A stretch of 64,000 bases of DNA from an uncultured Thermoplasmata archaeon (GTDB taxonomy: Archaea > Thermoplasmatota > Thermoplasmata > UBA10834). Location of the stretch: positions 768,001-832,000 of the forward strand of contig CAVRDX010000001.1 of NCBI GenBank assembly GCA_963719945.1, in the 5' to 3' direction. The notes beneath the pieces are model-generated. The model was not told where the DNA came from. It ran no database searches and was given only the letters and a program-made list of their open reading frames with translations. Shown piece after piece: positions 20,107 to 56,136 of the stretch; within the stretch, counting starts at the first letter, position 1; the number at the start of each line of letters is the position of its first letter. A program made the position numbers and the translations under genes.

Positions 20107-20123
20107 TCAATGACAGGTCAATA

Positions 20124-25083: not shown

Positions 25084-25084
25084 T

Positions 25085-25647: not shown

Positions 25648-25907
25648 CGGTCGCCACTCCCCATTATCTCGCGCTTGGTCAGCATTATTCCGAACAGGAT
25701 GACGACTACGACTGCACCCACATACACGAGTATCTGAATTATAGCTACGAATTCGGCATTCAGCATGATATACATGCAAGCGACAGCAATGAAGCAGGTG
25801 GCCAGCGCCACTACCCCATGGATTATCTCCCTGGCTCTGACCACAAGAAGAGCAGAGACCAACGCCGACGCAGAAAGGAACAGGAATATGAACATCTCCC
25901 AGGTCAC
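25644..25907 (-). CDS. nuoJ: Complex I-like subunit J, N-terminal half (FpoJ1-like)
   Basis: AEFVAIIQILVYVGAVVVVILFGIML signature. Confidence 0.9.
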   Translation of the reverse strand: MTWEMFIFLFLSASALVSALLVVRAREIIHGVVALATCFIAVACMYIMLNAEFVAIIQILVYVGAVVVVILFGIMLTKREIMGSGDR

Positions 25908-27941: not shown

Positions 27942-27945
27942 GGTC

Positions 27946-29028: not shown

Positions 29029-29034
29029 CCATGA

Positions 29035-29544: not shown

Positions 29545-29569
29545 ATATGATCCCCTGCTATCTTCTCCA

Positions 29570-30142: not shown

Positions 30143-30498
30143 ATCCAGATTATCTCCTCCTTCTTGAGGGCGTACACGACACCCACGAGAAGAATACCTA
30201 GGAAAGCCAACATCGAGAACTTGGCCATATCGCTTAGGTCAGTGAAGACGAGAGCCCACATGAGCACGAAGACCGTGACCAGGTCGAAGGCGATGAAAAG
30301 GATGGCGTACATATAATACTGGAAATGGAACTGAATCTGCGCCTCACCTATCGGGACTTCACCACATTCGTATGTGGTGGTACCTCGCGGATCGTTCTTA
30401 TCTGGTCTGAGATAGCGCGATAAGAGGAAGACTAGGGCAGGAAGCAAAACCGCTATGACCGCGAATGCAGCGACCCCCATATAGTCCTCTGCGAGCAT
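30139..30498 (-). CDS. nuoA: Complex I-like subunit A
   Basis: TYECGE, QYYMYAILFIAFD; three TM helices. Confidence 0.93.
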   Translation of the reverse strand: MLAEDYMGVAAFAVIAVLLPALVFLLSRYLRPDKNDPRGTTTYECGEVPIGEAQIQFHFQYYMYAILFIAFDLVTVFVLMWALVFTDLSDMAKFSMLAFLGILLVGVVYALKKEEIIWI

Positions 30499-30520
30499 CG
30501 CCCTCGGATTCGCATCAAAG

Positions 30521-33999: not shown

Positions 34000-35157
34000 A
34001 TGAGGAAGATCTCAGAGATCGAAAAGGACCTCGATGCATGCCTTCAATGCGGATACTGCAGGGATACCTGCCCAGTCTACAAACAGATCGGTTGGGAATC
34101 GGCCACGCCGAGAGGCAAAGTGTTCTACCTGAAACAGATAAAGAACAAGACCCCGGTGGACACATTGCTCCGAAGGACGCCGAAGATAGATGAGAAGTTC
34201 GTCGAGAGGATATTCCAGTGCACTTCATGCGCTGCATGCGAACATAACTGCCATGTCGAGATCGACTTCGCCAAGCTATGGGAAGAGGTAAAGGAATGGC
34301 TGATTGACCAGGGCCATGGGCCCATGGAAGCCCATAAGAAGATAAAGGAAAGGGTCGTGGCCAAGCACAACCCATTTGATGAGCCTAAGGAGAAGAGGCC
34401 GGCGTGGTTGCCAAAGGATGTGAAGCTCTCAGATAACCCAGAGGTGGTCTTCTTCACCGGTTGCACCGAGGCATACAGGATGCAGCCGCTCGCTGTTGCG
34501 ACCGCAAAGCTCCTGGACAAAGCTGGGGTCGCATTCACTACCATGGGAGAAGAGGAATGGTGCTGCGGGTCGCCGCTCCTTAGGACAGGGCAGAAAATAC
34601 CAGTGATGCAGGAGATCGCACCTCACAACGTGCAGGAGATGGAGAGGCACGGTTGGAAGACGATGGTCACTGCATGCGCGGGCTGCTACAACACGATGAA
34701 GAACGACTATCCGAAGATGGTCGGAAAACCATCGTTCAAGCTCTACCATGTCTCAGAGTACCTAGATAAGCTCATCAAAGAGAACAAGCTCAAATTCACC
34801 AAGGAGTTCAAGAAGAAGGTCGCCTACCACGACCCATGCCACCTTGGAAGGCACGCGAAGGTGTACGATGCCCCCAGGAACGTCCTCAGGGCCATACCTG
34901 GGCTGGAATTGGTTGAGATGAGGCACGAGAAGGGAGATTCTCAGTGCTGTGGCGCTGGTGGAGGGTTCAAAGCCGCCTTCAACGACATGGCGGAGAGCAT
35001 CGCAGCAGATAGGGTCAAGGAAGCCATCGATGCGGGGGCCGAGCTGATCGTCACATCGTGTCCGTTCTGTCAGGTCAACCTCAACGCAGGTGCCAAGAAA
35101 GCGGGCGTGGACATCAAGACGATGGATGTCGTGCAGGTCGCCTTGCAGGCTCTCTGA
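34000..35157 (+). CDS. HdrD/GlcF-like Fe-S oxidoreductase (2x[4Fe-4S] plus two CCG domains)
   Basis: CLQCGYC..TCP, CTSCAAC..NC, FTGC, EWCCG, TACAGC, HDPC, QCCG, TSCPFC. Confidence 0.9.
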   Translation: MRKISEIEKDLDACLQCGYCRDTCPVYKQIGWESATPRGKVFYLKQIKNKTPVDTLLRRTPKIDEKFVERIFQCTSCAACEHNCHVEIDFAKLWEEVKEWLIDQGHGPMEAHKKIKERVVAKHNPFDEPKEKRPAWLPKDVKLSDNPEVVFFTGCTEAYRMQPLAVATAKLLDKAGVAFTTMGEEEWCCGSPLLRTGQKIPVMQEIAPHNVQEMERHGWKTMVTACAGCYNTMKNDYPKMVGKPSFKLYHVSEYLDKLIKENKLKFTKEFKKKVAYHDPCHLGRHAKVYDAPRNVLRAIPGLELVEMRHEKGDSQCCGAGGGFKAAFNDMAESIAADRVKEAIDAGAELIVTSCPFCQVNLNAGAKKAGVDIKTMDVVQVALQAL

Positions 35158-40688: not shown

Positions 40689-40869
40689 GCTTTTCCCGAA
40701 GAACGGGTTATGCGGGAGCCCGATAAAAGCTTTCGCTCGTACGCGAGTGACTGGTGCATCTGCCAAACCATCGGTTAGCCAAGATAGTGCGCCAGGACAG
40801 GACTGCACAGAAAGAAGGAAAATGGTTGTTTGAAGGGGTTTGGGGCAAGAGCGATCTGCTCTGACCGCT

Positions 40870-42183
40870 TCAGGCTTCCTGCGGTTCGGCCTTCTTCTCG
40901 TAATTCCACGGGCCCTTGGTTATGAACGCGAGCGCAAATGCGACAAGCGAACCGATACCGACGGCGATGAACACGTACTCGAACCCGCCGGTGATTATGC
41001 CGGGGATGAGTCCGCCGATCACACCGCCCATTGCGTAGGCCGTGAAGACGATGCCGTAGTTGTTGCCGAAGTACTTGGTCCCGAAGAAGTCCGAAGTCGT
41101 AGGCGGAAACAAAGCGAAGTTGCCACCGAAGCAGAAGCCAGACAGGGATGCCAACGCCGTGAATCCAAGGAACTGCACATTCTCGTCCGTTGGCTTGCTC
41201 ATGATGAAGGCCGCAGCAGCGAACAATATTATCGCTTGAGTGAGGAACATCGCCCTCATGGCCTTCGTCCTTCCCAGCTTGTCGGATATTATGCCCCATG
41301 CGATCCTGCCTGCTCCGTTGAACACCGCCAGTATTCCGACGATAGTAGCGACCTGAGATATCACCATGACATTCTCTGCCACTGGATCGAAACTTGGGTT
41401 CGCATCAGCATAGATGTCCTCCAGATTCTGAGAGACGTTGCCGATGTTCCCGATCATCATCAGACCGCAGGTAGCGGACAATACGAACATGACCCAAAGG
41501 AGCTTGAAGCTCTTCGTCCCCATCATCTCTCGCCACTGGATGTCCTTGCCCTCCGAGCTGCCTGCCACCATCTTCGGAGGAGACCAGCCCTTCGGACAAT
41601 ATCCCGCTGGCGGGTTTATCAGGAACAATGCACCAATGAACACCATCGCGAAGAATATGATGCCGAGGTACAGGTACGCTGCAGAAATGCCACCCGAGTT
41701 GTCCACGAAGTACTTGCCTACCTGGGCGAATACAAACGTGCCAGCGCCGAAACCGGCTACCGCGATCCCGCTGACGAGTCCCTTCTTGTCAGGGAACCAC
41801 TTCAGGCAACATGCGATCGGGCAACCGTATCCGAAACCGACACCGATTCCAAGAACAGTATATCCGACATACATCAGGGCCAGGCTATCCGTGGACACTG
41901 ACGATATCATGTATCCCGCAGCGTATACAACGGCCGAGAGCATAGTGATCTTCATCGGACCGTGTTTATCCTGTAACTTTCCGCCAACCATCACGAACAA
42001 GCCGAAACCAGCCAAGCTCGTCGCGAATATCCCTAGCACCGCAAGCGACTTCGCACCTTCTCCGAGCTCAGCCGCCAAGGGCTTGTTGAAGACCGACCAG
42101 GCGTATATGGAGCCCAACGCAAGCTGGACCAACAAAGCGCCGATGACCGGTATCCATCTGTTCATTACTTTCTCTTCTGCCAT
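40870..42183 (-). CDS. MFS transporter, oxalate/formate antiporter (OFA) family
   Basis: LGSIYAWSVF, GKLQDKHGP, KWFPDKKGLVSGIAVAGFGAG, FNGAGRIAWG..SDKLGR, FGTK..GNNYG. Confidence 0.88.
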   Translation of the reverse strand: MAEEKVMNRWIPVIGALLVQLALGSIYAWSVFNKPLAAELGEGAKSLAVLGIFATSLAGFGLFVMVGGKLQDKHGPMKITMLSAVVYAAGYMISSVSTDSLALMYVGYTVLGIGVGFGYGCPIACCLKWFPDKKGLVSGIAVAGFGAGTFVFAQVGKYFVDNSGGISAAYLYLGIIFFAMVFIGALFLINPPAGYCPKGWSPPKMVAGSSEGKDIQWREMMGTKSFKLLWVMFVLSATCGLMMIGNIGNVSQNLEDIYADANPSFDPVAENVMVISQVATIVGILAVFNGAGRIAWGIISDKLGRTKAMRAMFLTQAIILFAAAAFIMSKPTDENVQFLGFTALASLSGFCFGGNFALFPPTTSDFFGTKYFGNNYGIVFTAYAMGGVIGGLIPGIITGGFEYVFIAVGIGSLVAFALAFITKGPWNYEKKAEPQEA

Positions 42184-42223
42184 CGTATCTCTCCCGTTTC
42201 AATTGTCAATTCATTCCCATTCT

Positions 42224-42790
42224 TCAGATGAATCTCACTGTGCCAGTCTTGATATCGAACATGGCACCGTACAGCGTAATCTTCTCAGCGTGAACGGCGT
42301 CCCGTATGATAGAGCTCATATCCATGAGCTTTCTCAACTGCACCCTGACATTCGTCTCTGCCACTAGATTCGGATCGCGTGATTTGACATCGTCGAGCTT
42401 TGACTTCGCACATTGTATTTCCTTTATCACGCATTCCATACTCTCCAGTCCCCCGCATTCGTATGAGGCCTTCACAGCACCGCATTCCGTATGACCCATC
42501 ACGAGGATCGCACGGACCTTCAGGTGAGATACGGCATATTCCAGGCTCCCGTACAGGCTTGGATCGCATACGCAATTCCCCGCCACACGGACGACGAACG
42601 CGTCGCCCAAGGACAGGTTGAATATCTTCACAGGGTCCACTCTAGAATCAGAACAGGTGACGATAGCCACGAACGGTTCCTGCTTCTTCGCGAGCCTCGC
42701 GAGAAACGAAGGGTCCGCGCCATTTCGGAACGTGGAATTCCCGTCGACCAATCGGGTCTTCGGATCCATGCTCGCGTCCGTAGCTAGCAC
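42224..42790 (-). CDS. Beta-class carbonic anhydrase
   Basis: L..GN..F, CSDSRV, VRVAGN, GSLEYAV, GHTECGAV. Confidence 0.93.
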   Translation of the reverse strand: MLATDASMDPKTRLVDGNSTFRNGADPSFLARLAKKQEPFVAIVTCSDSRVDPVKIFNLSLGDAFVVRVAGNCVCDPSLYGSLEYAVSHLKVRAILVMGHTECGAVKASYECGGLESMECVIKEIQCAKSKLDDVKSRDPNLVAETNVRVQLRKLMDMSSIIRDAVHAEKITLYGAMFDIKTGTVRFI

Positions 42791-42819
42791 CTCCTTTAGA
42801 GTGTCTTAAATTTAATATT

Positions 42820-42840
42820 GGAGGGGGGATGCCCCCCTCC
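42820..42840 (-). terminator. GC-rich hairpin between acs and the carbonic anhydrase gene
   Basis: 9-bp perfect stem GGAGGGGGG/CCCCCCTCC in AT-rich flanks about 20 nt after the acs stop. Confidence 0.55.
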
Positions 42841-42859
42841 TAGAAAAGGATATTGGTGT

Positions 42860-44614
42860 TTAGTCCTCAAGAGTCGAGACGTCGCCAGTCGGGAGACCGA
42901 GCTCTCTAGCCCTGAGCAGTCTCCTCATGATCTTGCCGCTCCTGGTCTTAGGGAGTGACTTGACGACCTCAATCTCCCTCGGGTACGCGTGCCCTGCGAG
43001 CCTGCTCTTGACGTGCTTCTGGATGTCCGCCTTGAGCTCGTCGCTCTCCACATGGCCAGGGGTCAGGACGATGAACGCCTTGATGATATTGCCTCTGAGC
43101 TGGTCAGGCTTCCCGATGACGCCCGCCTCAGCGACCGCCTCGTGCTCGATCAGCGCGCTCTCGACCTCGAAGGGCCCGACACGCTCGCCAGATGTCTTGA
43201 TGACATCGTCGGCGCGACCGACATACCAGAAGTATCCGTCATTGTCGATCTGGGCAGTGTCGCCGGTGTAGTACCAGCCGTTCCTGAAGTATTCGTTGTA
43301 CTTCGCCGGGTTATTCCAGATCTTCCTCATCATGGACGGCCACTTTGGCCTGATCACCAGGCTGCCTTCCTCGCCGTCGGCCAGAACCGTGCCGTTCTCA
43401 TCGACTATGGCGGCCTCGATGCCCGGGAGCGGCTTGCCCATGGAGCCTGGCTTGATAGGCATCTCAGGGAAGTTGGTGATCAATATGCTGCCCGTCTCCG
43501 TCTGCCACCACGTGTCGTGGAATGGCTTGTTGTCGAAGACCTCCTGGGCCCACTTGACTCCCTCTGGGTTGAGCGGCTCACCAACGCAGTAGAGCGCCCT
43601 CAAACTCGAAAGATCGTACTTCTTCGGTATGTCATCACCCTTCGCCATCAGCATCCTGACGGCCGTCGGGGCTGTGTACCATATGGATATCTTGTAGTTC
43701 TGGATGGCCTGGTACCATCGGTCTGGATCGAACCTGCCGCCGAGCCCGACCTGTGTCGTTCCGTTCGACCAGGGTCCGAGACAGCCATAGACCACGCCAG
43801 TGACCCAGCCTAGGTCAGCACCGCACCAATATACGTCCTCATCATGGACATCCAACACCCAGTAAGTCGTGAGGGTCGCCTGCACTATTCCCTTGTGGGC
43901 ATGCACGACCCCCTTCGGCTTCCCGGTCGAGCCAGATGTGTAGAGCAGGTACATGAACTCCTCGGGGTCCATGGGGACGGTCTCGAACTTGTCGGAAGCT
44001 GATGCCATCTCCTTCTCCCAGCTCAATTCGCCCGGAGCGACGTCATCGCCGACGATGATCGTGTGCTTCATTTCTGGCAGCTGGTCCTTGACCTCGTAGA
44101 ACCTCGTCTTTAGTTCGCTGTCAGTGACCAGACAGACTGCACTGCTGTCCAGGAGCCTGTCCTTGATGGCGTCCGGACCGAACGCGGGGAACATTGGGCT
44201 GGCAATCGCGCCATACTTTATCGCGCCCAGGAATCCGATGTATAGCTCAGGGGACCTCTGCAGGAAGAAGAATACCCTGTCCTGCCTCTTTATTCCCAGC
44301 TTCTTCATCACGTTCGCGAACTTGTTCGTCTGTTCGTAGAGCTGCTTGAACGTGAACTTCTGGGAATTGCCCTCGCCATCGTCATATATGAGAGCGACCT
44401 TGTCAGCGTTCTTTCCTTTCGCGTGCCTGTCAACAACGTTGTAGGCTGCGTTGATCTTCCCGCCGGGGAACCAGTCAACCATCTTCTCAGCGTCAGCCCA
44501 CTTGAAACTCGACCTCAGTTCGTTGTAGCCGAGTAGATTCGGCTTCAATCTGAGTTTCGAGGGGTCCTTTACGATAATTTCGCCTTTTATTAGCTCGGTG
44601 TCTTTCTCTGCCAT
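42860..44614 (-). CDS. acsA: AMP-forming acetyl-CoA synthetase
   Basis: YTSGSTGKPKG, ADLGWVTG, VGEPLNPE, DTWWQTETG, GRADDVIK, LPKTRSGKIMRR. Confidence 0.93.
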   Translation of the reverse strand: MAEKDTELIKGEIIVKDPSKLRLKPNLLGYNELRSSFKWADAEKMVDWFPGGKINAAYNVVDRHAKGKNADKVALIYDDGEGNSQKFTFKQLYEQTNKFANVMKKLGIKRQDRVFFFLQRSPELYIGFLGAIKYGAIASPMFPAFGPDAIKDRLLDSSAVCLVTDSELKTRFYEVKDQLPEMKHTIIVGDDVAPGELSWEKEMASASDKFETVPMDPEEFMYLLYTSGSTGKPKGVVHAHKGIVQATLTTYWVLDVHDEDVYWCGADLGWVTGVVYGCLGPWSNGTTQVGLGGRFDPDRWYQAIQNYKISIWYTAPTAVRMLMAKGDDIPKKYDLSSLRALYCVGEPLNPEGVKWAQEVFDNKPFHDTWWQTETGSILITNFPEMPIKPGSMGKPLPGIEAAIVDENGTVLADGEEGSLVIRPKWPSMMRKIWNNPAKYNEYFRNGWYYTGDTAQIDNDGYFWYVGRADDVIKTSGERVGPFEVESALIEHEAVAEAGVIGKPDQLRGNIIKAFIVLTPGHVESDELKADIQKHVKSRLAGHAYPREIEVVKSLPKTRSGKIMRRLLRARELGLPTGDVSTLED

Positions 44615-45020: not shown

Positions 45021-45914
45021 TCACTCTTTCAAGTTGTGGTGTATCTTTGCGGCCTTGACCGTGTTCTTCATCAGCATTGTGATCGTCATCGGTCCCACTC
45101 CGCCAGGTACTGGAGTGATCGCCTTCGCCTTTTCCTTCACCGACTCGAAATCCACATCACCCACGAGCCTCGTGCCGTTCTTCGCGGTCGGGTCGTTGAT
45201 CCTGTTTACGCCTACATCTATCACGACGACTCCGTCCCTGACCATGTCTGCCTTCACGAAGTTGGGCACACCTATGGCCGCGATGAGGATGTCGGCCTGT
45301 TTCGTGAATTCGCTCATGTTCTGCGTTCTCGAATGACATATGGTGACGGTTGCATCCGCCCCCGGGGCTTTCTGAAGGAGTATGTTTGTGATCGGCTTCC
45401 CGACGATGTTGCTACGGCCTATGACGACTACATGCTTACCCTTAGGATCGTTCCCGCTCCTCACGAGGAGTTCCTGTATTCCATGAGGTGTGCACGGCAG
45501 ATAGCAGTCCTCGGCCCCGACGACCATCTTCCCTACATTCACGGGGTGGAAGCCGTCCACATCCTTGCTCGGATCGATCTTGAGCAACACATTCTGCTCG
45601 TTGATATGCTTCGGCAGCGGGAGCTGGACGAGGATACCATCGAACTTCTTGTCGTTGTTGTACTTGTCGATCAGATCAAGGAGTTCCTGCTCCGTCGTTT
45701 CCACGGGGAGACGTATCGTCTCGGAGTGCATGCCTAGCTCCACACACGCTTCACCCTTCTTCCTCACATAGACCTGTGAAGCTGCATCTTCTCCAACGAT
45801 GATCACTACCAGACCAGGGGTCACCCCGGACTTCTTCATCCCAGCGATCTCATCCTTGAGTTCTGCTCGGATGCTTTTCGCAACCTCGTTTCCGTTTATG
45901 ATTTGGGCCACCAA
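45021..45914 (-). CDS. folD: Methylene-THF dehydrogenase/cyclohydrolase
   Basis: YVRKK, GILVQLPLP, KDVDGFHP, PCTP.G, GRSNIVGKP, TPVPGGVGPMT. Confidence 0.97.
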   Translation of the reverse strand: MVAQIINGNEVAKSIRAELKDEIAGMKKSGVTPGLVVIIVGEDAASQVYVRKKGEACVELGMHSETIRLPVETTEQELLDLIDKYNNDKKFDGILVQLPLPKHINEQNVLLKIDPSKDVDGFHPVNVGKMVVGAEDCYLPCTPHGIQELLVRSGNDPKGKHVVVIGRSNIVGKPITNILLQKAPGADATVTICHSRTQNMSEFTKQADILIAAIGVPNFVKADMVRDGVVVIDVGVNRINDPTAKNGTRLVGDVDFESVKEKAKAITPVPGGVGPMTITMLMKNTVKAAKIHHNLKE

Positions 45915-46041: not shown

Positions 46042-47721
46042 ATGGCGATGAAGCCAGATATTGAAATTGCTCAGGAAGCAAAGGTACAGCACATTGAGAA
46101 GATTGCGGAAAAGGTCGGCCTTTCCCGCGATGATCTAGACTTCTACGGGAAGTACAAAGCAAAGGTCCCTCTCGACGTGCTAAAGAGATATGAAAGCAAC
46201 AAGGATGGCAAACTCATCTTTGTCACCGCCATCACCGCCACAAAGGCCGGTGAGGGGAAGACGGTCACATCCATAGGTCTGTGCCAGGGCATGGGCCAGC
46301 TGGGAAAGAAGGTCATGCTTTCCCTCAGAGAACCATCGCTTGGTCCGACATTCGGAATCAAGGGTGGCGCGACCGGAGGAGGATACTCCCAGATCTATCC
46401 GATGTGGGATATCGACCTGCACTTCACAGGCGACATACACGCAGTTGGAACAGCTCATAACCTGCTGTCCGCACTCGTGGAGAACCATGTCACAAAGAAG
46501 AACCCGCTAGGGATCGACCCGACAAAGATCACCTGGAGAAAGGCCATGGACATGAACGCCAGGGAGCTGAGGAAGATCGTTGTCGGACTCGGAGGCAGGA
46601 CCGTGGGAGGTGTGCCACACGAGAGCGGCTTCGACATAACAGTCGCCAGTGAGATCATGGCCATACTGGCACTCTCAAAGGACATGGCCGACCTCAGACT
46701 CAGAATGTCTAGGATGGTCGTAGGATACACGTACGACAATAAACCTGTCACCGCGGACCAGCTGAAGGGAATAGGTGCTATGTGCCTCCTGCTGAAGGAC
46801 GCGATCGCTCCGACACTGGTTCAGACGCTCGAGGGGCAGCCCGCACTCATACACGGAGCGCCTTTCGCGAACATCGCGCACGGGAACAGTTCCATCATTG
46901 CGACCAAGTACGCACTCAAGATGGCAGATTATGTAATCACTGAGGGCGGATTCGCGATGGATCTCGGTGGCGAGAAGTTCTTCGATATCGTCTGCAGGAT
47001 AACTGGTCTGAAGCCTGACGTCGCCGTACTCGTCGCCAGCATAAGGGCCCTCAAGATGCACGGCGGGATGGACCAGAAGGAAATCGGCAAGCCCGATGTC
47101 GGATTCCTCGAGAAGGGTTACAGCAACCTCGACAAGCACATAGAGAACATCAAGAAGTTCGGAGTGCCTGTCGTAGTCGCGATCAACCAGTTCCCGACCG
47201 ACAGTCCAGAGGAGATCGAGCACATCAAGAAGCACTGCGCGAAGGTCGGTGCGAGATTCGGTCTATCCAGAGTGTTCGTCGAGGGTGGCAAGGGCGGCGT
47301 AGAACTCGCTCAGGCTGTGCTGGAATCGCTCGAGAAGGAGAAGAGCAACTTCAAGGTGCTCTATGACGAGAAGCTCCCAATAAAGGATAAGATAAAGATC
47401 ATCGCGACGGAGATCTATGGGGCAAAGGATGTAGTATACACTGGCACTGCTCCTGGAGACATCGCAGCGATCGAGGCGGCCGGCAACGACAAGCTTCCGA
47501 TCTGCATGGCTAAGACCCAGCACTCCCTCACGGACGACCCGGCGAAGAAGGGTGCGCCCAAGGATTGGGTCCTGACGGTAAGGGAGGTCAGACTGTCCGC
47601 TGGAGCGGGCTTCATAGTACCCCTGACCGGAGAGATGATGACGATCCCGGGATTGCCAACATCTCCTGCAGCGGAGAGGATCAACATCGACGACAACGGT
47701 TACATAACCGGACTCAACTGA
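46042..47721 (+). CDS. fhs: Formate--tetrahydrofolate ligase
   Basis: AGEGKT, LREPSLGPTFGIKGGATGGGYSQ, LHFTGDIHA, PFANIAHG, CMAKTQ.SL. Confidence 0.97.
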   Translation: MAMKPDIEIAQEAKVQHIEKIAEKVGLSRDDLDFYGKYKAKVPLDVLKRYESNKDGKLIFVTAITATKAGEGKTVTSIGLCQGMGQLGKKVMLSLREPSLGPTFGIKGGATGGGYSQIYPMWDIDLHFTGDIHAVGTAHNLLSALVENHVTKKNPLGIDPTKITWRKAMDMNARELRKIVVGLGGRTVGGVPHESGFDITVASEIMAILALSKDMADLRLRMSRMVVGYTYDNKPVTADQLKGIGAMCLLLKDAIAPTLVQTLEGQPALIHGAPFANIAHGNSSIIATKYALKMADYVITEGGFAMDLGGEKFFDIVCRITGLKPDVAVLVASIRALKMHGGMDQKEIGKPDVGFLEKGYSNLDKHIENIKKFGVPVVVAINQFPTDSPEEIEHIKKHCAKVGARFGLSRVFVEGGKGGVELAQAVLESLEKEKSNFKVLYDEKLPIKDKIKIIATEIYGAKDVVYTGTAPGDIAAIEAAGNDKLPICMAKTQHSLTDDPAKKGAPKDWVLTVREVRLSAGAGFIVPLTGEMMTIPGLPTSPAAERINIDDNGYITGLN

Positions 47722-47872: not shown

Positions 47873-49111
47873 ATGTCGAAAAGTGTCCTCATTATTGGAG
47901 GAGGGCCCGCAGGCGTATCCGCGGCGAAGGCCCTCGTTGACAGAAGCGAAGGAATCGTGCTCGTGGAGAGGTCCGAATCCCTCGGCGGTATGGCAAGGGA
48001 GCTGACCTGCAAGGGCGTGAGCGAGTGCAGGAACTGCGGAGCATGCTATGTCGTCGATCGATCGGCAGAGCTGCTGAGAGATAAGATCGCAGAGGTCCTG
48101 CTGCTCTCAGAGGCTACCCAGATCAAGAAAGAGGGAGATGGGTACGAGGTCAAGATCAAAATCTCGCCTAGATATGTCACCAACAACTGCGTAGGGTGCA
48201 GCAAGTGTATCGAAGTGTGCCCGGCAGATGGCAAGGCGATCTTCGCGCCAACTGGCAACGGTCAGCCGAGGCAGCACTGGATCGACAGGAGCAAGTGCCT
48301 GCACTTCAAGAAGGACAAGTGCCAGAAGTGTGCCGATGTGTGCCCGACCAAAGCCATAGATTACGAGGATAGGGCGAAGAACATCACCAGGAAGGTCTCA
48401 TCTATTATCTGCGCCACCGGCATGGAACCAGTGGACGCATCCGAAGTCAAGAGGCTCGGCGGTGGCGTGCTGGAGAACGCAATCTCGAGCTTGGACGCGG
48501 AACGAATCCTTAACAATCATGGTAGGCTGCTCAGACCATCGGACGGCAAGCAGCCGAAGAAGATCGCAGTCATTCAGTGTGTCGGGTCCAGATCAGCAAA
48601 GACAGGTGTGGAGTATTGCTCCAAATTCTGCTGCAAGTATGCGACCAAGATCTCCCAGCTGCTCATCGACCAGGACCCGGAGGTCAACCTGGATTTCTAT
48701 TTCATGGACCTGAGGACCCTATACGAACCTCACGACGAATTCAAAAAATGGGTCAGGGAGAGGAAGAAGACGGTCAGGATGATCCGGAGCATGCCCGCAG
48801 TCGTGTTGCCTGGCAACGATGGGAATCTGGTCGTGAGAGCATCCACGGAGACTGACTCGGAAGTCATCGAAACGGAATATGACCTGGTCTTGCTCTCGGT
48901 CGGAATGCGCCCCACCACAAATCCAAAGGAACTCATCGATTCCCTCGCAATAAAGACGGACGAGAGAGGGTTCGCGATCTGCGACAAGTCGCTCGAAGAA
49001 TCGGGCGTCTTCATGGTCGGGACCACCTGTGAGCCCATGGACATAGAGGAGACAACTGTGAGGGCAGCTGCCGCAGCATCTCGTGCGAGCCATCGGAAGG
49101 AGGGAGTCTGA
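47873..49111 (+). CDS. HdrA-like flavoprotein, core FAD domain plus inserted 2x[4Fe-4S]; lacks the N- and C-terminal Fe-S domains
   Basis: IIGGGPAG, PRYV..CVGCSKC..VCP, C..C...CP..AIDY, QCVGSR...YCSKFCCKYATK, FMDLRT, DLVLLSVG. Confidence 0.85.
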   Translation: MSKSVLIIGGGPAGVSAAKALVDRSEGIVLVERSESLGGMARELTCKGVSECRNCGACYVVDRSAELLRDKIAEVLLLSEATQIKKEGDGYEVKIKISPRYVTNNCVGCSKCIEVCPADGKAIFAPTGNGQPRQHWIDRSKCLHFKKDKCQKCADVCPTKAIDYEDRAKNITRKVSSIICATGMEPVDASEVKRLGGGVLENAISSLDAERILNNHGRLLRPSDGKQPKKIAVIQCVGSRSAKTGVEYCSKFCCKYATKISQLLIDQDPEVNLDFYFMDLRTLYEPHDEFKKWVRERKKTVRMIRSMPAVVLPGNDGNLVVRASTETDSEVIETEYDLVLLSVGMRPTTNPKELIDSLAIKTDERGFAICDKSLEESGVFMVGTTCEPMDIEETTVRAAAAASRASHRKEGV

Positions 49112-50688
49112 TGAAGGGGCATATACAGGTCATCGGATGCAAGTCCTGCACCGAGATTCCTCGGCTCATAGACATGAACAAGCTGATTGAGAAGGCATCT
49201 ACGATGGAGCTTGTCGTCTCGACAGTACTTGTCGGCGCCGTTTGCGATATAAAGAGCATAAAACAGGTCGTCCAGGAAGCCAGAGAGAGGGAGGTGGACA
49301 GGGTCGTGGTACTCGCATGTCCCAAGAAGGTGGTAAATCCCGCGCTCCTGGCTGCATTCAAGAAGGCTAAGGTGAACGAGTTCCTGGTCGAGTATGTCAA
49401 CATCAGAGATGAGGCTGTCCTTCCGCACATGAACGACTCGGTCAGAGCGCAGACAAAAGCGGAGACTATGATGATAGCTGCTCTCCAAAAGGTGCTCGAA
49501 CTCAAGCCGCTTGAGACTCTGGAAGAGAACATGAGGACGAGGAACGTCGTCGTGCTAGGCGGAGGTTCATCCGGAAGGAAGGCTGCGGAAACCGCCGCGA
49601 AGACCGGAGCTCATACGATAATCATCGAGAAGGGCACGAAGAGCTTCAAAGCTCCCGGCATACTGATGCAGAACTCCGTCCTGTTGAAATCCAAAGGATA
49701 CGGTGGCAATTTCATATTGACCATCAGGGCAGGGGAGAAGGTGGAGGAGCTCGAATGCGCGGCAATCGTGGTCGCAACTGGCGGCGGCTGGACCGGGCTC
49801 AAGGGGCCGCTCGCAAAGGCATGCAAGAGCGCGTTGCCCCTGTACGAATTGGATGAACAGATACGCTCAGGCGGGAAGCCGGAAGGCCCCATCGTGATCG
49901 TCGATTCGTCGGACCCAGCTGGCAAGTCCATGCAGGTCCGTGATTACGCATGGGATGAGTCCCTTGATCTGGCAGTCGAACTCAAGAGACGTTCGGCGGA
50001 TGCTGACATCACAATCATATTCCAGGAGATGCGGGCTTTCGGCCTATCCGAGCTGAAGTACAAAGAGGCCGCGGAGCTTGGTGTCAGGTTCATCAGATAC
50101 GACCTTGCTGGAATCCCCAAGATCGACTCCAAGGAACCGAACGTGATCTCGGTCAGGGACCTCGCACAGGGCGAGACTATCAGGTTGAGGTTCGGGACTC
50201 TGGCATTCGCATCGATACCTGCGAACGATGACAATGAAGGCATCGCGGAGACACTGAGGATACCGATGTCTCCGGATGGAGGTGTCCGGCACGGAAGCAT
50301 ACAGAGAGGACCGGTAAGCACCCCTAGACCAGGGATATTCGTCTGCGGCTCCGCCCTTTTCCCCAAGACGAAGGATGTCGCCGAAGATGAAGGCACTGTT
50401 GCAGGCGAACTTGCAGGAGAGTTCGCATCGAAGGGGATCATTGAATACGGAGGACTGGTCGCCGAGGTAACGCAGGAGAAATGCTCCGCGTGTCTGACGT
50501 GCATCAGGACATGTCCATACGAGGCCCCGTTCATAGGCACTGCCAACAAAGCAGAGATACGCATACAGGCCTGCCAAGGATGCGGGATGTGCGTCGGCAT
50601 ATGCCCGAGCAAAGCGATCGAGTTACGCAACTGCACTGACGGCCTCATAATGCAGGAGACCAAGACGATGCTTAGAGGTGATTTCTGA
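49111..50688 (+). CDS. Degenerate HdrA-like protein with N-terminal Cys domain, diverged FAD fold and C-terminal 2x[4Fe-4S]
   Basis: GCKSC...VC...RVVVLACP...EYVNIRD, VVVLGGGSSG, PGIFVCGSALFPK, CSACLTCIRTCP, CQGCGMCVGICP. Confidence 0.8.
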   Translation: MKGHIQVIGCKSCTEIPRLIDMNKLIEKASTMELVVSTVLVGAVCDIKSIKQVVQEAREREVDRVVVLACPKKVVNPALLAAFKKAKVNEFLVEYVNIRDEAVLPHMNDSVRAQTKAETMMIAALQKVLELKPLETLEENMRTRNVVVLGGGSSGRKAAETAAKTGAHTIIIEKGTKSFKAPGILMQNSVLLKSKGYGGNFILTIRAGEKVEELECAAIVVATGGGWTGLKGPLAKACKSALPLYELDEQIRSGGKPEGPIVIVDSSDPAGKSMQVRDYAWDESLDLAVELKRRSADADITIIFQEMRAFGLSELKYKEAAELGVRFIRYDLAGIPKIDSKEPNVISVRDLAQGETIRLRFGTLAFASIPANDDNEGIAETLRIPMSPDGGVRHGSIQRGPVSTPRPGIFVCGSALFPKTKDVAEDEGTVAGELAGEFASKGIIEYGGLVAEVTQEKCSACLTCIRTCPYEAPFIGTANKAEIRIQACQGCGMCVGICPSKAIELRNCTDGLIMQETKTMLRGDF

Positions 50689-51107
50689 TGACGCAGCAAA
50701 GACCCAAGATAGTCGGCTTCTGCTGTGAACGACATGGCCTGGACTCGGCGATTGTGGCTGCGAAGTCGGGCACCACATATGATGCGAGTGTGAGGATCAT
50801 CGATGTACCGTGCACTGGAAGGGTGGATGGACTGCATATCCTAAAGGCGCTCGAGGATGGCGCAGACGCCGTCTTCGTGCTCGGCTGTCTCGAGAAGAAC
50901 TGCTACTATGACACTGGCTCAATCGAAGGCAGGAAGCGTGTGGAATATGTCAGATCGATGCTCGCAGAGGCAGGCATCGAGAAGGAGAGGGTCGAGATGT
51001 TCAATACCTCCTCGACCATGGCCTGGAAATTCCCGGAGATAGTCTCGAAGATGTGTGACATCGTCAATCGACTCGGTCCGCTCGGAAAGGATGGTGATGA
51101 GCAATGA
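50688..51107 (+). CDS. mvhD: MvhD-like [2Fe-2S] protein
   Basis: KIVGFCC, VPCTGRVD, GADAVFVLGC...C.Y..G, GIEKERV. Confidence 0.9.
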   Translation: MTQQRPKIVGFCCERHGLDSAIVAAKSGTTYDASVRIIDVPCTGRVDGLHILKALEDGADAVFVLGCLEKNCYYDTGSIEGRKRVEYVRSMLAEAGIEKERVEMFNTSSTMAWKFPEIVSKMCDIVNRLGPLGKDGDEQ

Positions 51108-51808
51108 TAGTCGCGAAGAGAAAGCCCCTCGGAGAGATCGCTGACATGATCGCTCCGTACAAGAAGGTCTCGGTGATCGGGTGCCGGAGCTGTGTGGCGA
51201 TCTGTCTGGCCGGTGGAGAGAAGGAAGTCAAGATGCTCGTCTCCGCACTCAAGGTCAAGAACAAGAAGGAGGGCAGGAAGCAACAGTTCGAAGCACTCGT
51301 CGTAGAGAGACAGTGCGAGAAGGAGTGGATCCAGGAGGTCGAGGACAAGATACTCGATTCCGACCTCGTATTGTCCATGGCGTGTTCGTTGGGAGCCCAG
51401 ACGATAGGTGACAACTACCCGCACAAGCTCGTGTTCCCCGCGCTCAACACTGGGATATTCGGCGTGCCCGAGGAGCAGGGCGTGTGGTCCGAGAAGTGCG
51501 TTGGCTGCGGCAACTGCATCATCCATACGACCGGAGGCATATGCCCGATCGCGAGATGCGCCAAGAGCATGTTGAACGGCCCTTGCGGAGGTTCGTCCAA
51601 CGGTCATTGTGAAGTTAACCTGGACATCGATTGCGCATGGTATGCGATCCATGAGAGGCTGAAGCTGCAGAACAGGCTTGAGCTGATCGAGCAGGTATCA
51701 GCACCAAAGGATTGGTCCACAAGCCACTCGGGTGGAAGGCGAATATACGTCAGAGAGGACGCGAAGCTGACTCAACACCAGAAGAAGGGTAAGGAGGCGG
51801 TCAGATGA
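51104..51808 (+). CDS. metV: Methylene-THF reductase Fe-S/Zn subunit MetV
   Basis: MIVAKRKP..EI, GCRSCVAIC.AGGEKEV, RQCE, CVGCGNC, GGICPIARCAKSMLNGPCGG, CAW. Confidence 0.92.
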   Translation: MIVAKRKPLGEIADMIAPYKKVSVIGCRSCVAICLAGGEKEVKMLVSALKVKNKKEGRKQQFEALVVERQCEKEWIQEVEDKILDSDLVLSMACSLGAQTIGDNYPHKLVFPALNTGIFGVPEEQGVWSEKCVGCGNCIIHTTGGICPIARCAKSMLNGPCGGSSNGHCEVNLDIDCAWYAIHERLKLQNRLELIEQVSAPKDWSTSHSGGRRIYVREDAKLTQHQKKGKEAVR

Positions 51809-52788
51809 AGACTGGCAGCAACCTGGAGAAGGTCTTCGAATCGGGCAAGTTCGCTGTCACTGCCGAGATCGGTCCGCCACAGTCTGCGAATCCTGAACCG
51901 CTCGTGCACCATGCAAAGATGTTGAAAGGCTATGCAGACGCATTCAACCTTACAGACAACCAGACCGCAGTGGTGAGGCTTTCCAGCATCGCCAGCGCGG
52001 CCATAATCATGAGAGAAGGAGTGGAGCCGGTCATACAGATGACCTGCAGGGACAGGAACAGGATCGCCCTCCAGAGCGATCTTCTGGGCGCAAGTGCGCT
52101 AGGCATCAGGAACGTGCTCTGCCTGACCGGGGACCATCAGACCTTCGGCAACGAGAAGGGCGCGAAGAGCGTTTTCGACTTCGATTCGATCTCTGAGCTG
52201 CAGGTTTTCGACAGGCTTCGGAGGGAAGGCAAGCAGGTCGGCGGAGGAGAGATAAAAGATCCGCCCAAGGTGTACCTAGGTTGTGCAGAGAACCCTTTCG
52301 CGACTCCGTACGAGTTCAGGGCTTCGCGGCTGGCGAAGAAGGTAGCGGCCGGCGCTGACTTCTGTCAAACGCAGGCCATATTCGACATGGACATGTTCGA
52401 GAAGTGGATGGACGAGGTCCGTAGCCGAGGTCTCGACAAGAAAATCCACATACTAGCAGGGGTCATACCCATGAAGACCGCTGGCGCTGCCAGGTACATG
52501 AAGAACAAGGTCCCTGGAATGATCGTGCCCAACCACATCATCGACAGGATGAAGAATGCCAAGGACTCAAAGGAAGAAGGCATCAGGCTATGTGTGGAAC
52601 AGATCGAGACTCTCAAGAAGATGAAGGGGGTCCATGGCATCCACATAATGGCAGTCATGTGGGAGGATATCGTGCCCAGGATAGTCGAAGAGGCAGGGCT
52701 CCTTCCGAGACCGACAGTTCTGACCAGGCTCCGCAGACGACGCCTCCGAGGTACGATACGATGTCGCAAACTGAGTTCGACCAATTGA
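51805..52788 (+). CDS. metF: Methylene-THF reductase catalytic subunit MetF
   Basis: FAVTAEIGPP, NLTDNQ, QMTCRDRNRIALQSDLLGA, LCLTGDH, KK..AGADF.QTQ, GIHIM. Confidence 0.95.
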   Translation: MKTGSNLEKVFESGKFAVTAEIGPPQSANPEPLVHHAKMLKGYADAFNLTDNQTAVVRLSSIASAAIIMREGVEPVIQMTCRDRNRIALQSDLLGASALGIRNVLCLTGDHQTFGNEKGAKSVFDFDSISELQVFDRLRREGKQVGGGEIKDPPKVYLGCAENPFATPYEFRASRLAKKVAAGADFCQTQAIFDMDMFEKWMDEVRSRGLDKKIHILAGVIPMKTAGAARYMKNKVPGMIVPNHIIDRMKNAKDSKEEGIRLCVEQIETLKKMKGVHGIHIMAVMWEDIVPRIVEEAGLLPRPTVLTRLRRRRLRGTIRCRKLSSTN

Positions 52789-54419
52789 ACGAGCAGATGC
52801 TTGTGAAGCTATTCGAGATCTGCCCGGACGCTGCTACGCAATTTGGAAAGCACAGACCGTACGACCTGCATCTGCCTCATGGCGGGTTCAAGCGCCTGGG
52901 CGACACGCTCAAGCTCCTTGAATCATGGAACAAGGAAGCAAGCAGGATAGCTGATTCGACCGACCTCACGACAGACCAGACCATATCATTCGAGGTGCTG
53001 AGGATGTCCCTCGAACTCCAGAGGTTCGCGATAGAGGATTATCCGCTCTGGAAGATGTACCCAGATGGGCTCGAGCATCCAGGCTGGCTCCTTTTCTTGA
53101 TGGCTGTGCGTGAGTATGCGCCCCTTCCGGAGAGGGTTGAAGGAATCGTATCGAGGATAGGCGAATTGCCACGCTATCTCGGGGAATTCAGACAGAGGTT
53201 CTCGGATTCGAAACCTGTGAAGGTATGGACAGAGAGCGCGATCGAGACATGCGAAGGCGTACCAGACTACCTTGCTCATCTACGAAGCTTCGCCCAGGGC
53301 AGCATATCATCATCCCTTCTCGCCCAGATGGACAAGAACATCGCGTATGCGAACGAGGAGATCGCCAATCACAAGGACTGGTTGAAAGGAATGCTCGACA
53401 TATCCGTCGAACAGTTCGCGATGGGTAGGGAGAAGTTCTCCAAGTTGCTCAAGATTCGTGGGATCGATTACCTTCCGGACGAAGTCCTTGTCATAGCCGA
53501 GATGACAATACACGAGCTCAAAGAAGAACGCGCCATCATCTCGAGCAGGATATCCCCGGACGGGATTCCAGAGAAGGCCAAGGAGATAGTGGAATCGGAC
53601 ACGCCGGATACCATCGAAGAGGTGCTGGCAATCACAGGCAGCGAAACAGAGAATGCAAAACGATTCCTGATCAAGCACGATCTCATCTCACTTGATCATG
53701 GAGGGATCCTCAATTTCGTCAGGACTCCTGAATTCCTAAGCCTCACGATCCCTACCGCGGCATTGATGATGCCGGCAGTCTTTGATGAGACCCAGCACGG
53801 GACCTACCTAATCACGAACCCGCCAGACAAAGACGACCTCCGAAGCCTTTGGAATCGCGCGGCCATCATCAACACAGTGGTCCACGAGGCATATCCTGGC
53901 CATTTCCATCAAGGAGTGGTATCGAACAGGAAGCCGTGGATGCATCAGCTCCCGCACATGCTGATCGCCCCGGATACCATGATTCCTGCCTATGAGATGA
54001 TGGAAGGTTGGGCGCATTATTGTGAGAAAATGATGTACGACCACAAGTTCTGCGGGACCGATAAGGACGCTCATGCGATGATAGAGTTCGGCCTCTGGAG
54101 GGCCTGCAGGGCGATATACGATGTAGAACTCGCCAGCGGTGACGCATCGATCGATGAGATGGTGGAGATGTTCGTCCGTGAGACGAGCACCACCAGAAAC
54201 TCAGCAGAAGCGGATGTCAAAGGATTCTCGCACACGCCTGGGTACGGTCTATCATACATGATGGGAAGGAAGATGGTCCTGGAGTTCAGGAAGGAGCTGG
54301 AGAACGAGCTCGGACAGCGGTTCGACGAGAAGCTATTCCACGACCTCATGGCGGAGAACGGCAACCTCCCATTCCATCTGGCCAGGAGAGCGGTCAAGTC
54401 AGCGATGGTACTGCACTGA
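52761..54419 (+). CDS. DUF885 family putative metallopeptidase (paralog 1)
   Basis: HEAYPGHFHQ, EGWAHYCE, PGYGLSYMMG, FDEKLFHD; start set at ATG 52761 after a GAGGT RBS. Confidence 0.85.
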   Translation: MSQTEFDQLNEQMLVKLFEICPDAATQFGKHRPYDLHLPHGGFKRLGDTLKLLESWNKEASRIADSTDLTTDQTISFEVLRMSLELQRFAIEDYPLWKMYPDGLEHPGWLLFLMAVREYAPLPERVEGIVSRIGELPRYLGEFRQRFSDSKPVKVWTESAIETCEGVPDYLAHLRSFAQGSISSSLLAQMDKNIAYANEEIANHKDWLKGMLDISVEQFAMGREKFSKLLKIRGIDYLPDEVLVIAEMTIHELKEERAIISSRISPDGIPEKAKEIVESDTPDTIEEVLAITGSETENAKRFLIKHDLISLDHGGILNFVRTPEFLSLTIPTAALMMPAVFDETQHGTYLITNPPDKDDLRSLWNRAAIINTVVHEAYPGHFHQGVVSNRKPWMHQLPHMLIAPDTMIPAYEMMEGWAHYCEKMMYDHKFCGTDKDAHAMIEFGLWRACRAIYDVELASGDASIDEMVEMFVRETSTTRNSAEADVKGFSHTPGYGLSYMMGRKMVLEFRKELENELGQRFDEKLFHDLMAENGNLPFHLARRAVKSAMVLH

Positions 54420-54456
54420 CGGAGGGCGAGAAACCGATTGTGGCTTCGGAAGGCTC

Positions 54457-56136
54457 ATGTCGCATGATGCTATCACCCTGTCAGGTGATCATGTGGGGGC
54501 ACATGCTTTCGGTCAGCTGAACGAAGAGATGCTCAAGAAACTACTCGCTGTGAATCCAGATATGGGCACAGCAATGGGATTGCACGACCCTTATGATATG
54601 TATCTGCCCCATGGCGGACTGAAGCGCATCGATGATACTCTCGACATCCTCAAAGAATGGAGGATCAAGGCACGTGAGATCGATTCCAAGGATTTCACAT
54701 TGGACGAGAGACTGATGTTGAGAGTGCTTGACATCTCCATCGATTTTACCACCTTCAGCAGGCACGAGTATCCACTCTGGAGGATGCACCCAGACGAGAT
54801 CGAAGCACTCGGCGGGCTCGTCTTCATGATGTTCTCCAGGGACTATGCGCCGATCGAATTCAGGGCTCGGGCCATGGCCAGCCGACTCCATCAGGTGCCG
54901 AAGCACTTCGAGGAGTTCAGGGCAAGGTTCAACGGACAAAGGACCGTGAGACTCTGGACAGAAGCAGCTATCGAATCCTGTGACCAGTTCCCGGATTTCC
55001 TGACATTCATCGAGCAATCCTGGAAGGATGATATCACACCTGAGACAGCCAAGGCTCTGTCCGAGGGCGTGAACATGACCAAGACGGCCGTCGCGAAACA
55101 GAAAGAGTGGCTCAAAGGACGCCTGCAGACTGCGGATGCGGACTTCGCCATGGGCAGAGTCAAGTTCGAGAAATTGATCGAGATGAGAGGTTTGGGCATG
55201 GATTCGGATGCAATCCTCTCTCTCGGAGAGAAGTACCTGAAGGAACTCAAAGCCGAACGGGAGGTCATATCCGAGAAGATCTCCCCAGGCGGAGGAGTCG
55301 ATGGCGCGAAAAAAATTGTGGAATCACACGCGCCAAAGACCTTCGAGGAAGGGCTGAAGGCTACAGAGGAGGAGATGCTCAAGGCCAAACGGTTCATAAT
55401 TGAAAACGGGATAGCCACCATAGATGAGAGCAGCGTCCTCAAGATAATCGAGACACCTGCATTCCTTGCCCCCGTGCTGCCCTATGCGGCGTTGTTCATG
55501 CCGTCCAAGTTTGACAAGGTCCAAGAAGGGGCATATGTCGTGACCAGGCCGAAGGATCCAAAAGACCTTGGCAGCCATCTCAACCATGGGTCCATAATAA
55601 ACACCGCAGTGCACGAAGCATACCCGGGCCACTTCCACCAGGGGGTCAGGTCCAATGGCAAGCACTGGATGCTCCAGCTGCATCAGATGTCGGACAACCT
55701 ATACGTCGCTGCGGAGACCGTGGAGGGATGGGCGCACTACTGCGAGAAGATGATGTACGATCATGGATACGGAACCGATGACGAAGCGGTTCTGGAGATG
55801 ATCAACGGAGCCCTTTGGCGAGCTTACAGGATAATCGCAGACATCAAGCTTGCAAGAGGTGAAGCGACTGTCGATGAGATGGTCGACCTCGCCGTGAACG
55901 AGATAGGCATTCCGAGGAACGCCGCGAGAGACGAAGTGATCAGATACACCAGAAGCCCTGGACAGGCCCTATCATATCTCATCGGCAGACATCTGATAAT
56001 CGAGTTCAGGAAGGATATGGAGAAGGAACTGGGAGATGCGTTCGACGAGAAGAAGTTCCATGACCTTGTCGCGGACTATGCGTACCTGCCGATATTCCTG
56101 CTGAGCGACGCGGTCAGGGAATGCATGAAAAGGTGA
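54457..56136 (+). CDS. DUF885 family putative metallopeptidase (paralog 2)
   Basis: HEAYPGHFHQ, EGWAHYCE, EVIRY...PGQALSYLIG, FDEKKFHD. Confidence 0.87.
   Translation: MSHDAITLSGDHVGAHAFGQLNEEMLKKLLAVNPDMGTAMGLHDPYDMYLPHGGLKRIDDTLDILKEWRIKAREIDSKDFTLDERLMLRVLDISIDFTTFSRHEYPLWRMHPDEIEALGGLVFMMFSRDYAPIEFRARAMASRLHQVPKHFEEFRARFNGQRTVRLWTEAAIESCDQFPDFLTFIEQSWKDDITPETAKALSEGVNMTKTAVAKQKEWLKGRLQTADADFAMGRVKFEKLIEMRGLGMDSDAILSLGEKYLKELKAEREVISEKISPGGGVDGAKKIVESHAPKTFEEGLKATEEEMLKAKRFIIENGIATIDESSVLKIIETPAFLAPVLPYAALFMPSKFDKVQEGAYVVTRPKDPKDLGSHLNHGSIINTAVHEAYPGHFHQGVRSNGKHWMLQLHQMSDNLYVAAETVEGWAHYCEKMMYDHGYGTDDEAVLEMINGALWRAYRIIADIKLARGEATVDEMVDLAVNEIGIPRNAARDEVIRYTRSPGQALSYLIGRHLIIEFRKDMEKELGDAFDEKKFHDLVADYAYLPIFLLSDAVRECMKR

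Follow-up and report, generated by a model that had tools for sequence, protein, structure and literature searches.

The five-gene metVF operon

The 64-kb stretch of DNA analysed here (the window, G000:C1:768001-832000) belongs to a 1.78-Mb, 87% complete genome, G000, of an uncultured sediment archaeon in Ca. Gimiplasmatales/UBA10834 (Thermoplasmatota). This order has been described previously (PMC11264602; bioRxiv 2020.03.09.984617), and the close relatives of the host are the Thermoplasmata UBA9653, RBG_19FT_COMBO_56_21 and RBG_13_57_23. The window contains an operon in which the genes for MetV and MetF, the iron-sulfur and flavin subunits of methylene-tetrahydrofolate (methylene-THF) reductase, are preceded by two hdrA-like genes and mvhD. 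Judged from its sequence, the product of the operon is very probably an Hdr-type MetVF complex in which HdrA is a heterodimer. The genes of the operon and the diagnostic features of the first of them are the following.

47873-49111, plus strand: HdrA core, 412 aa, with a flavin adenine dinucleotide (FAD)-binding thioredoxin-reductase domain, the ligands of cluster HA4 and an inserted 2x[4Fe-4S] ferredoxin
48008-48046, plus strand: four-cysteine motif C46-K-G-x3-C52-x2-C55-x2-C58, at the place where canonical HdrA has the loop D-K-T-F-P-T-x-D-C194-x2-C197
48188-48343, plus strand: inserted ferredoxin domain, C106-C157, its 8 cysteines invariant in 20 Gimiplasmatales sequences
48500-48649, plus strand: E210 and K259 (E356/K409 in M. 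thermolithotrophicus) with the HA4 ligands C236, C249, C253 and C254, located by residue alignment to 5ODC
49111-50688, plus strand: HdrA', 525 aa, with an N-terminal domain, a degenerate middle and a C-terminal 2x[4Fe-4S] domain, predicted scaffold and mobile arm
50688-51107, plus strand: MvhD [2Fe-2S] adaptor, 139 aa (PF02662, E 1.6e-36)
51104-51808, plus strand: MetV iron-sulfur subunit, 234 aa (PF12225, E 9.2e-35)
51805-52788, plus strand: MetF flavin subunit (methylene-THF reductase), 327 aa (PF02219, E 3.1e-42)

The five open reading frames overlap by 1, 1, 4 and 4 bases, and a purine-rich run resembling a ribosome-binding site is found at each junction. The first-pass annotation had placed five overlapping genes directly after fhs, the formate-THF ligase gene. 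All five reading frames and their overlaps were recovered. The direct coupling to fhs was not, as a gap of 151 bp separates it from the HdrA core gene, so that the two are adjacent without being translationally coupled. Neither hdrB nor hdrC is found within the five-gene operon, as had been noted before, and the same is true of all 35 Thermoplasmatota loci inspected. The scan for promoters and terminators at the operon gave matches at chance level only.

In MvhD the cysteines C13, C42, C67 and C72 are conserved, and the protein shares no more than 30-33% identity with the remaining MvhD domains of the host genome. MetV has 13 invariant cysteines; no solved MetV relative or MetVF-Hdr structure was present in the PDB copy searched. 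MetF occurs in 46 of the 49 genomes of the order, in a single copy in nearly all of them, including the host. Its reading frame extends 21 codons beyond the usual end at 306 aa (52723-52788) and overlaps the likely start of a DUF885 gene (ATG 52761). MetF is 336 aa long in the two closest species, and the read-through tail is a feature of the clade, not a lone error. Two tandem DUF885 genes (52761-56136) follow metF in most members of the family. A search for MvhD-MetV fusions returned one protein, P0121, from a long-read contig with many frameshifts, and it was discarded as a likely artefact.

Complementary HdrA proteins and the four-cysteine motif

The HdrA core aligns with residues 144-562 of HdrA from M. 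thermolithotrophicus (5ODC, E 1.4e-69), and its AlphaFold2 model best matches the arm-less HdrA chain 8rvu_a (TM 0.83/0.81). The protein has the Rossmann FAD motif and is without the N- and C-terminal arm domains. The HA4 ligands are invariant in 34 of 34 orthologues of the core, and E210/K259 and both clusters of the inserted ferredoxin are kept across the family of the host. The equivalent of K259 is arginine in family f2 and in most members outside the Thermoplasmata. In canonical HdrA, the inserted ferredoxin is the low-potential exit. The E356/K409 pair has been used to recognise bifurcating flavins (PMC9430772); together with the FAD Rossmann motif it is present in the 412-aa protein and missing from the 525-aa protein.

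The N-terminal domain of HdrA' contains four cysteines. Its middle domain is without the Cys197 loop, the inserted ferredoxin, the HA4 cysteines and the E/K pair. This loss recurs in every metVF-linked HdrA' partner examined; the HdrA' partner in a paralogous formate dehydrogenase (Fdh) cassette keeps HA4. Orthologues of HdrA' are 51-92% identical across the family of the host, and identity among the Gimiplasmatales loci is 28-69% for HdrA' as against 57-93% for MetV and MetF.

The earlier observation of two dissimilar HdrA-like genes was borne out by domain search and alignment, which also showed their domain content to be complementary. The idea that the pair provides two flavin modules was not, since HdrA' is a cofactor-poor scaffold. 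The full cluster set of a bifurcating HdrA (HA4, inserted ferredoxin, N-terminal and C-terminal clusters) is reached only by both proteins summed. The core has no N-terminal domain and carries C58 at the position of Cys197, and HdrA' has the N-terminal domain with the Cys197 loop deleted. In the HdrA alignment, the GltD NAD(P)H-binding insert is absent from both. By their sequences, the two hdrA genes complement each other as the halves of a single module. Because of this complementarity, the core and HdrA' most likely form one asymmetric unit with a single working flavin. Solved Hdr structures show the arm of one protomer serving the FAD of the other (PMC12350162). Tandem complementary HdrAs have been proposed to act as heterodimers in anaerobic methanotrophic archaea (ANME) (10.1101/2021.09.25.461819), and fused forms have been assigned to type II HdrA (PMC12054007). 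Complex prediction with the HdrA core, the C-terminal domain of HdrA', MvhD and MetV as partner gave scores of 0.35/0.36/0.44, controls with the partner replaced gave 0.00 and the control with the core replaced gave 0.44.

The canonical D-K-T-F-P-T-x-D-C-x2-C loop beside the FAD is not found in the HdrA core. The four cysteines of the motif that takes its place are all invariant in the 34 orthologues. The motif is absent from the solved HdrA and sHdrA chains, and no description of it was found in the HdrA literature consulted, which did not extend to Appel et al. 2021. An equation of the motif with the sHdrA arrangement was rejected, as 6TJR is without it. A profile of the motif stretch retrieved 93 clusters at 50% identity, most of them with the motif. 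In a quick, midpoint-rooted IQ-TREE phylogeny of HdrA, the motif-bearing cores form one clade of 65 rows (Shimodaira-Hasegawa approximate likelihood-ratio support 99), and within its Thermoplasmata subclade (support 97) Gimiplasmatales is sister to families bearing mcrA.

Six genomic contexts of motif-bearing genes were fetched, and in five of them metV and/or metF is adjacent, together with the usual partners. Two of the six are Thermoplasmata-like loci without hdrBC. One is a bacterial metV-metF-hdrA-hdrA'/mvhD-hdrC-hdrB cluster, one encodes a 909-aa fusion followed by metV, and one is a Wood-Ljungdahl cluster, after which come hdrC and a gene for a GltD-bearing HdrA. The sixth (L088/L097, G216) has the order fhs-metF-hdrA-frhB-like-hdrA(1146)-mvhD-hdrA, with metF but no neighbouring metV. 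In the phylogeny and in these contexts, the four-cysteine motif marks a MetVF-linked clade of HdrA. The cysteine spacing suggests a candidate extra [4Fe-4S] site next to the flavin, and the motif probably holds a fixed cluster where a shuttle cluster otherwise sits. In the AlphaFold2 model the loop that carries the motif (residues 40-54) has a predicted local distance difference test score below 50.

Distribution and relation to known enzymes

The operon is preceded by two further genes of folate metabolism.

46042-47721, plus strand: fhs, formate-THF ligase (PF01268; NF010030 above cut-off)
45021-45914, minus strand: folD, divergent from fhs (PF02882 and PF00763; syntenic)

The fhs gene is syntenic at the 5' side of the operon in all loci of the order, and folD completes the methyl branch of the folate pathway. 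The order folD, fhs, HdrA core, HdrA', mvhD, metV, metF is identical in all 19 Gimiplasmatales loci fetched, from both families, with one locus ending at the contig end after mvhD; thus, the gene order is not due to chance. A phylum-wide sample added 14 genomes with the four-cysteine motif, from four further Thermoplasmata families. In all of these genomes the five genes occur as the same block, again without hdrBC and often with an AcsE-like gene and purH next to it. The synteny search therefore extends hdrA-hdrA'-mvhD-metV-metF across Gimiplasmatales and four further families. Since the five of these genomes that were tested carry mcrA, the four families are most likely Methanomassiliicoccales. 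The same operon is found in G226, an mcrA-positive genome in a single contig; in the methanogens of its family, f22, the core is without the inserted ferredoxin and HdrA' is without the N-terminal domain. Another Thermoplasmata genome, G052, has the arrangement hdrC-hdrB-fused hdrA-mvhD-metV-metF with the canonical loop.

The closest known enzyme is the type IV methylene-THF reductase HdrCBA-MvhD-MetVF of Sporomusa ovata and Moorella thermoacetica (PMC9430772, PMC8760232). Both systems have adjacent metV and metF genes, hdrA and mvhD in the cluster, the order hdrA-mvhD-metV-metF and two thioredoxin-reductase-like HdrA domains. As in the present operon, the E/K pair of S. ovata HdrA is found only in the N-terminal domain, and the C-terminal part is without the inserted ferredoxin. 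The GltD NAD(P)H domain of Moorella HdrA is shared neither by S. ovata nor by the present operon. In contrast to the type IV enzymes, HdrA is here encoded by two genes, the cluster has no hdrCB and the host is an archaeon; furthermore, the first domain keeps the inserted ferredoxin and the second has lost HA4. Because hdrCB is not in the cluster, the operon is a variant of type IV methylene-THF reductase rather than a plain member.

The first-pass annotation had put the enzyme forward as a candidate for a new archaeal one. This novelty does not hold, as a Met complex has already been predicted for Methanomassiliicoccus intestinalis, listed as encoding it by Poudel et al. (PMC6085437), and an archaeal MetFV-HdrA-MvhD cluster in Ca. 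Syntrophoarchaeum as well as tandem HdrA pairs have been published (10.1101/2021.09.25.461819). The archaeal occurrence, the HdrA-MvhD-MetVF clusters and the tandem HdrA pairs are thus all precedented. In both archaeal cases metVF lies next to mvhD/hdrA, as here, and hdrBC was assumed or found elsewhere; these papers report gene presence only, and the split architecture, the missing hdrBC and the cysteine motif are not described in them. In the tandem or fused HdrAs of ANME (HdrA5/6, 12/13, 3/4; 10.1101/2021.09.25.461819) and in type II HdrA, composed of A6 and A12 (PMC12054007), the FAD residues are reportedly present in both domains. Unlike these, HdrA' has lost both HA4 and the E/K pair, and the core has the two extra cysteines of the four-cysteine motif.

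The HdrABC-MvhAGD, Fdh-Hdr and Elp-Hdr complexes (5ODC, 7BKB, 8RVU) share with the operon the core fold (TM 0.83), E356/K409, HA4, the inserted and C-terminal ferredoxins and MvhD. They differ in being homodimers with two FADs and HdrBC, in having the two-cysteine loop and in their electron donor, which is hydrogenase, Fdh or Elp instead of MetVF. The sHdrA of sulfur oxidisers (6TJR), a short HdrA without ferredoxin inserts encoded in an shdr/lbpA cluster, is a different case, since here the insert is present and the context is metVF. No apr or sat gene indicative of a QmoAB-type context was found in the fetched loci, the set searched for them.

Beyond these precedents, the operon offers a stripped-down scaffold subunit, a four-cysteine motif that marks a clade, and an occurrence in probably culturable methanogens. 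With five genes and one predicted working flavin, it is the smallest natural Hdr-type enzyme in the present data, and its relatives form a natural deletion series, with or without the inserted ferredoxin, the N-terminal domain, K409 and hdrCB. To our knowledge, no second carrier has been identified for the Moorella enzyme since 2014. The coupling of methylene-THF reduction and of methyl-THF oxidation is still an open question. As the operon occurs in mcrA-bearing relatives, probably including Methanomassiliicoccus, of which cultures exist, its wiring and partners are testable.

Electron transfer and metabolic setting

The absence of hdrBC concerns the operon and not the genome. The host has a stand-alone hdrCB on contig C3 (C3:93729-95103) with no hdrA beside it, and five HdrD-like CCG proteins, one of them encoded at 34000-35157 of the window. 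At least five other HdrA genes were found, none with hdrBC adjacent in the present assembly. Across the order, hdrB occurs in 47 of 49 genomes and the orthologue of the stand-alone hdrB in 46 of 49, most genomes having a second hdrCB inside a large hdr/mvh island; hdrB was also found in 18 of the 18 other Thermoplasmatota genomes checked. In G018 and G020 this island (L118-L121) spans 20 kb; besides hdrCB and mvhGA, it encodes four to five HdrAs, several MvhD domains and a fusion of MvhD with HdrD. One of the HdrAs of G020 (901 aa) has a GltD-like insert. The host contigs C3 and C4 break inside it. The separation of hdrA from hdrBC is common; it was assumed earlier for Met complexes, and a comparable split has been reported for Ca. 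Syntrophonatronum (PMC6295475). As hdrB is present elsewhere in the genomes and this separation is common, gene order alone cannot prove independence from HdrBC.

We propose that the usual two-domain HdrA has been split into a heterodimer within an Hdr-type (type IV) methylene-THF reductase. By analogy with solved Hdr structures, the HdrA core, HdrA' and MvhD would make up one asymmetric half of an (HdrA-MvhD)2 core. MetVF would dock on the MvhD arm, where hydrogenase or formate dehydrogenase docks elsewhere, and the HA4 exit would be served by HdrCB encoded in trans. On balance, we consider this arrangement of MetVF on the MvhD arm and HdrCB at HA4 to be likely, though with modest confidence. 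The docking on MvhD is suggested by gene order and by the Mvh and Fdh paralogues: the order hdrA'-mvhD-metV-metF parallels hdrA'-mvhD-fdhB-like-fdhA of the relatives and hdrA-mvhD-mvhG-mvhA of the host. The use of HdrCB is supported by the wide occurrence of hdrB in the order and in the other Thermoplasmatota, by the bacteria of the four-cysteine clade, in which this HdrA sits with hdrCB or hdrC, and by the metVF cluster of G052 with its hdrC and hdrB. Family f22 keeps the operon without the inserted ferredoxin and the N-terminal domain; therefore, what is conserved is a wire that has HA4, and not the ferredoxin exit, as its end, and such methanogen copies fit HdrCB at HA4 well. The earlier proposal of a distinct HdrA-HdrA'-MvhD-MetVF complex coupled to ferredoxin survives in part. 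Coupling to ferredoxin is plausible in view of E210/K259 and the inserted ferredoxin, but independence from HdrBC is not supported, given the distribution of hdrB described above and the hdrC or hdrCB in the clusters of the bacterial clade members.

In this arrangement, methyl-THF would be supplied by a system of MttB, corrinoid protein and AcsE-like methyltransferase, and electrons would pass from methyl-THF through MetF, MetV, the arm clusters, FAD and HA4 to HdrCB and a disulfide. The methylene-THF produced would enter the FolD/Fhs, purine and glycine routes. In reverse, reduced ferredoxin and thiols would be confurcated onto methylene-THF where the inserted ferredoxin and CODH/ACS (CO dehydrogenase/acetyl-CoA synthase) are present. 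With redox potentials from PMC5861303, the straight two-electron transfer from methyl-THF to a disulfide at -140 mV was computed to yield about -12 kJ/mol. Methyl-THF oxidation with bifurcation to ferredoxin is uphill (+31 to +46 kJ/mol), and confurcation in the reducing direction yields -31 to -46 kJ/mol. Several points weigh against HdrCB as the partner. The 35 Thermoplasmatota operons never contain hdrBC, and the stand-alone HdrCB has other likely partners, namely an 809-aa HdrA-MvhD fusion and several more HdrAs. In the Thermoplasmata clade, the loop following HA4 reads D-L-R-T or D-W-R-P in place of the canonical D-I-R-A-F-G-K-G, and HdrC binding may have been lost if this loop belongs to the HdrC interface.

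Alternatively, MetVF could replace HdrBC at the high-potential HA4 exit, and MvhD would recruit MvhAG or Fdh in trans. Two H2 (or formate) would then reduce ferredoxin and methylene-THF, and in reverse reduced ferredoxin would pull methyl-THF oxidation to H2. The energetics fit both ways (-25 to -40 kJ/mol reductive, -5 to -21 kJ/mol oxidative at 10 Pa H2). The consistent absence of hdrBC from the operon, the altered loop after HA4, the intact E/K signature and inserted ferredoxin of the host, the MvhGA encoded in its genome and the Fdh cassette that many relatives have some 6 kb upstream all agree with this arrangement. However, the bacterial clade members, Moorella and Sporomusa carry MetVF in addition to hdrC(B), so MetVF is no replacement there. 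Moreover, mvhD is translationally coupled to metV and has diverged far from the hydrogenase-linked MvhD, some methanogen copies have no ferredoxin exit, and K409 is often arginine. We regard such a replacement as unlikely. The evolutionary scenario that goes with it, in which a MetVF-dedicated HdrA clade fixed the extra [4Fe-4S] cluster, the Thermoplasmata dropped HdrBC and MetVF became the high-potential arm of a five-subunit bifurcating enzyme, is similarly doubtful. If true, an HdrA bifurcation module with neither a disulfide nor a quinone arm would be seen here for the first time; it would link H2 or formate, ferredoxin and methylene-THF, and would give a direct answer to anaerobic methyl-THF oxidation.

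It is likewise improbable that the HdrA pair is a plain flavin and iron-sulfur link, without bifurcation or HdrBC, from MetVF to one carrier. This carrier could be ferredoxin, an NAD(P)-linked flavoprotein or an HdrD/Fpo-like complex, and the enzyme would resemble a type II MetVF with an adaptor. Type II MetVF works with reduced ferredoxin in vitro (PMC8760232), the conformational gate could be abolished by an additional fixed cluster next to the FAD, parts of the clade do without K409 and the inserted ferredoxin, and Fpo-like genes and an HdrD-like gene lie within the window. The invariance of the HA4 ligands in all 34 orthologues nevertheless implies an exit that is used, and E210/K259 and both ferredoxin clusters are kept in the family of the host. 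That the HdrA and MvhD genes are decaying or merely co-regulated with a MetVF that acts alone in biosynthesis is very improbable: HdrA' is degenerate and evolves faster than MetV and MetF, and the linked genes purH, folD and fhs point to a function in biosynthesis, but two archaeal orders as well as bacteria maintain the translational coupling and gene order, the cluster cysteines are all invariant, and the MetV and MetF proteins from S. ovata pull down HdrA (PMC9430772).

The first-pass annotation had expected Mer to be the usual solution in such an archaeon. No Mer-family gene is present in the host genome, and Mch, the marker of tetrahydromethanopterin, was found in none of the 49 genomes of the order; thus, the lineage uses folate as the one-carbon carrier, as reported for Gimiplasmatales (PMC11264602). 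The host genome encodes seven MttB homologues, corrinoid proteins and a RACo activator. One locus (G000:C1:233178-238119, L051) comprises two mttB genes, a corrinoid protein gene and a gene for a divergent AcsE-like pterin-binding methyltransferase. An orthologue of the latter occurs in 46 of 49 genomes of the order, and the protein is a candidate for the corrinoid-to-THF transferase missing from Gimiplasmatales according to PMC11264602. The operon would explain how methyl groups enter folate chemistry in methylamine-using Gimiplasmatales and in methyl-reducing methanogens.

The host also has GcvT, H and P-like genes, a group-3-type hydrogenase operon and an Fpo-like complex. The search for mvhAG located MvhGA, encoded together with MvhD, and the search for fdh returned no FdhA orthologue in G000. 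ACS was found neither in the 87% complete host genome nor in one 98%-complete relative; it is present in 31 of 49 genomes of the order, the two closest relatives included, and the absence from the host was therefore rejected as a means of fixing the direction of the reaction. Methyl-THF oxidation is needed in all members if they are methylamine users, and reduction may be relevant where CODH/ACS is present. In the 31 genomes, the open frames that contain the ACS domain are about 1,380-1,450 aa long, a size that points to a CODH-ACS fusion.

On the minus strand of the window, at about 20100-30500, an 11-subunit Fpo-like complex I without input module is encoded, and the HdrD-like gene at 34000-35157 lies on the plus strand. 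This combination is as in Methanomassiliicoccales and could be a membrane sink or source for a disulfide cycle. Many relatives, including the 91%-identical G006, have a second split cassette between kptA and a major facilitator superfamily (MFS) gene, hdrA(434)-hdrA'(565)-mvhD-fdhB-like(258)-fdhA(681). This Fdh cassette (L057; L068 912-7149) is without hdrBC and has the canonical loop; it is absent at the corresponding spot of the host (window 40808-40870). The conserved neighbours of folD at 40870-44614 (minus strand) encode an acetate-CoA ligase and, judged by sequence alone, a beta-carbonic anhydrase-like protein and an MFS transporter similar to oxalate/formate antiporters. These neighbours would fit an exchange of formate or acetate at the end of the methyl branch.

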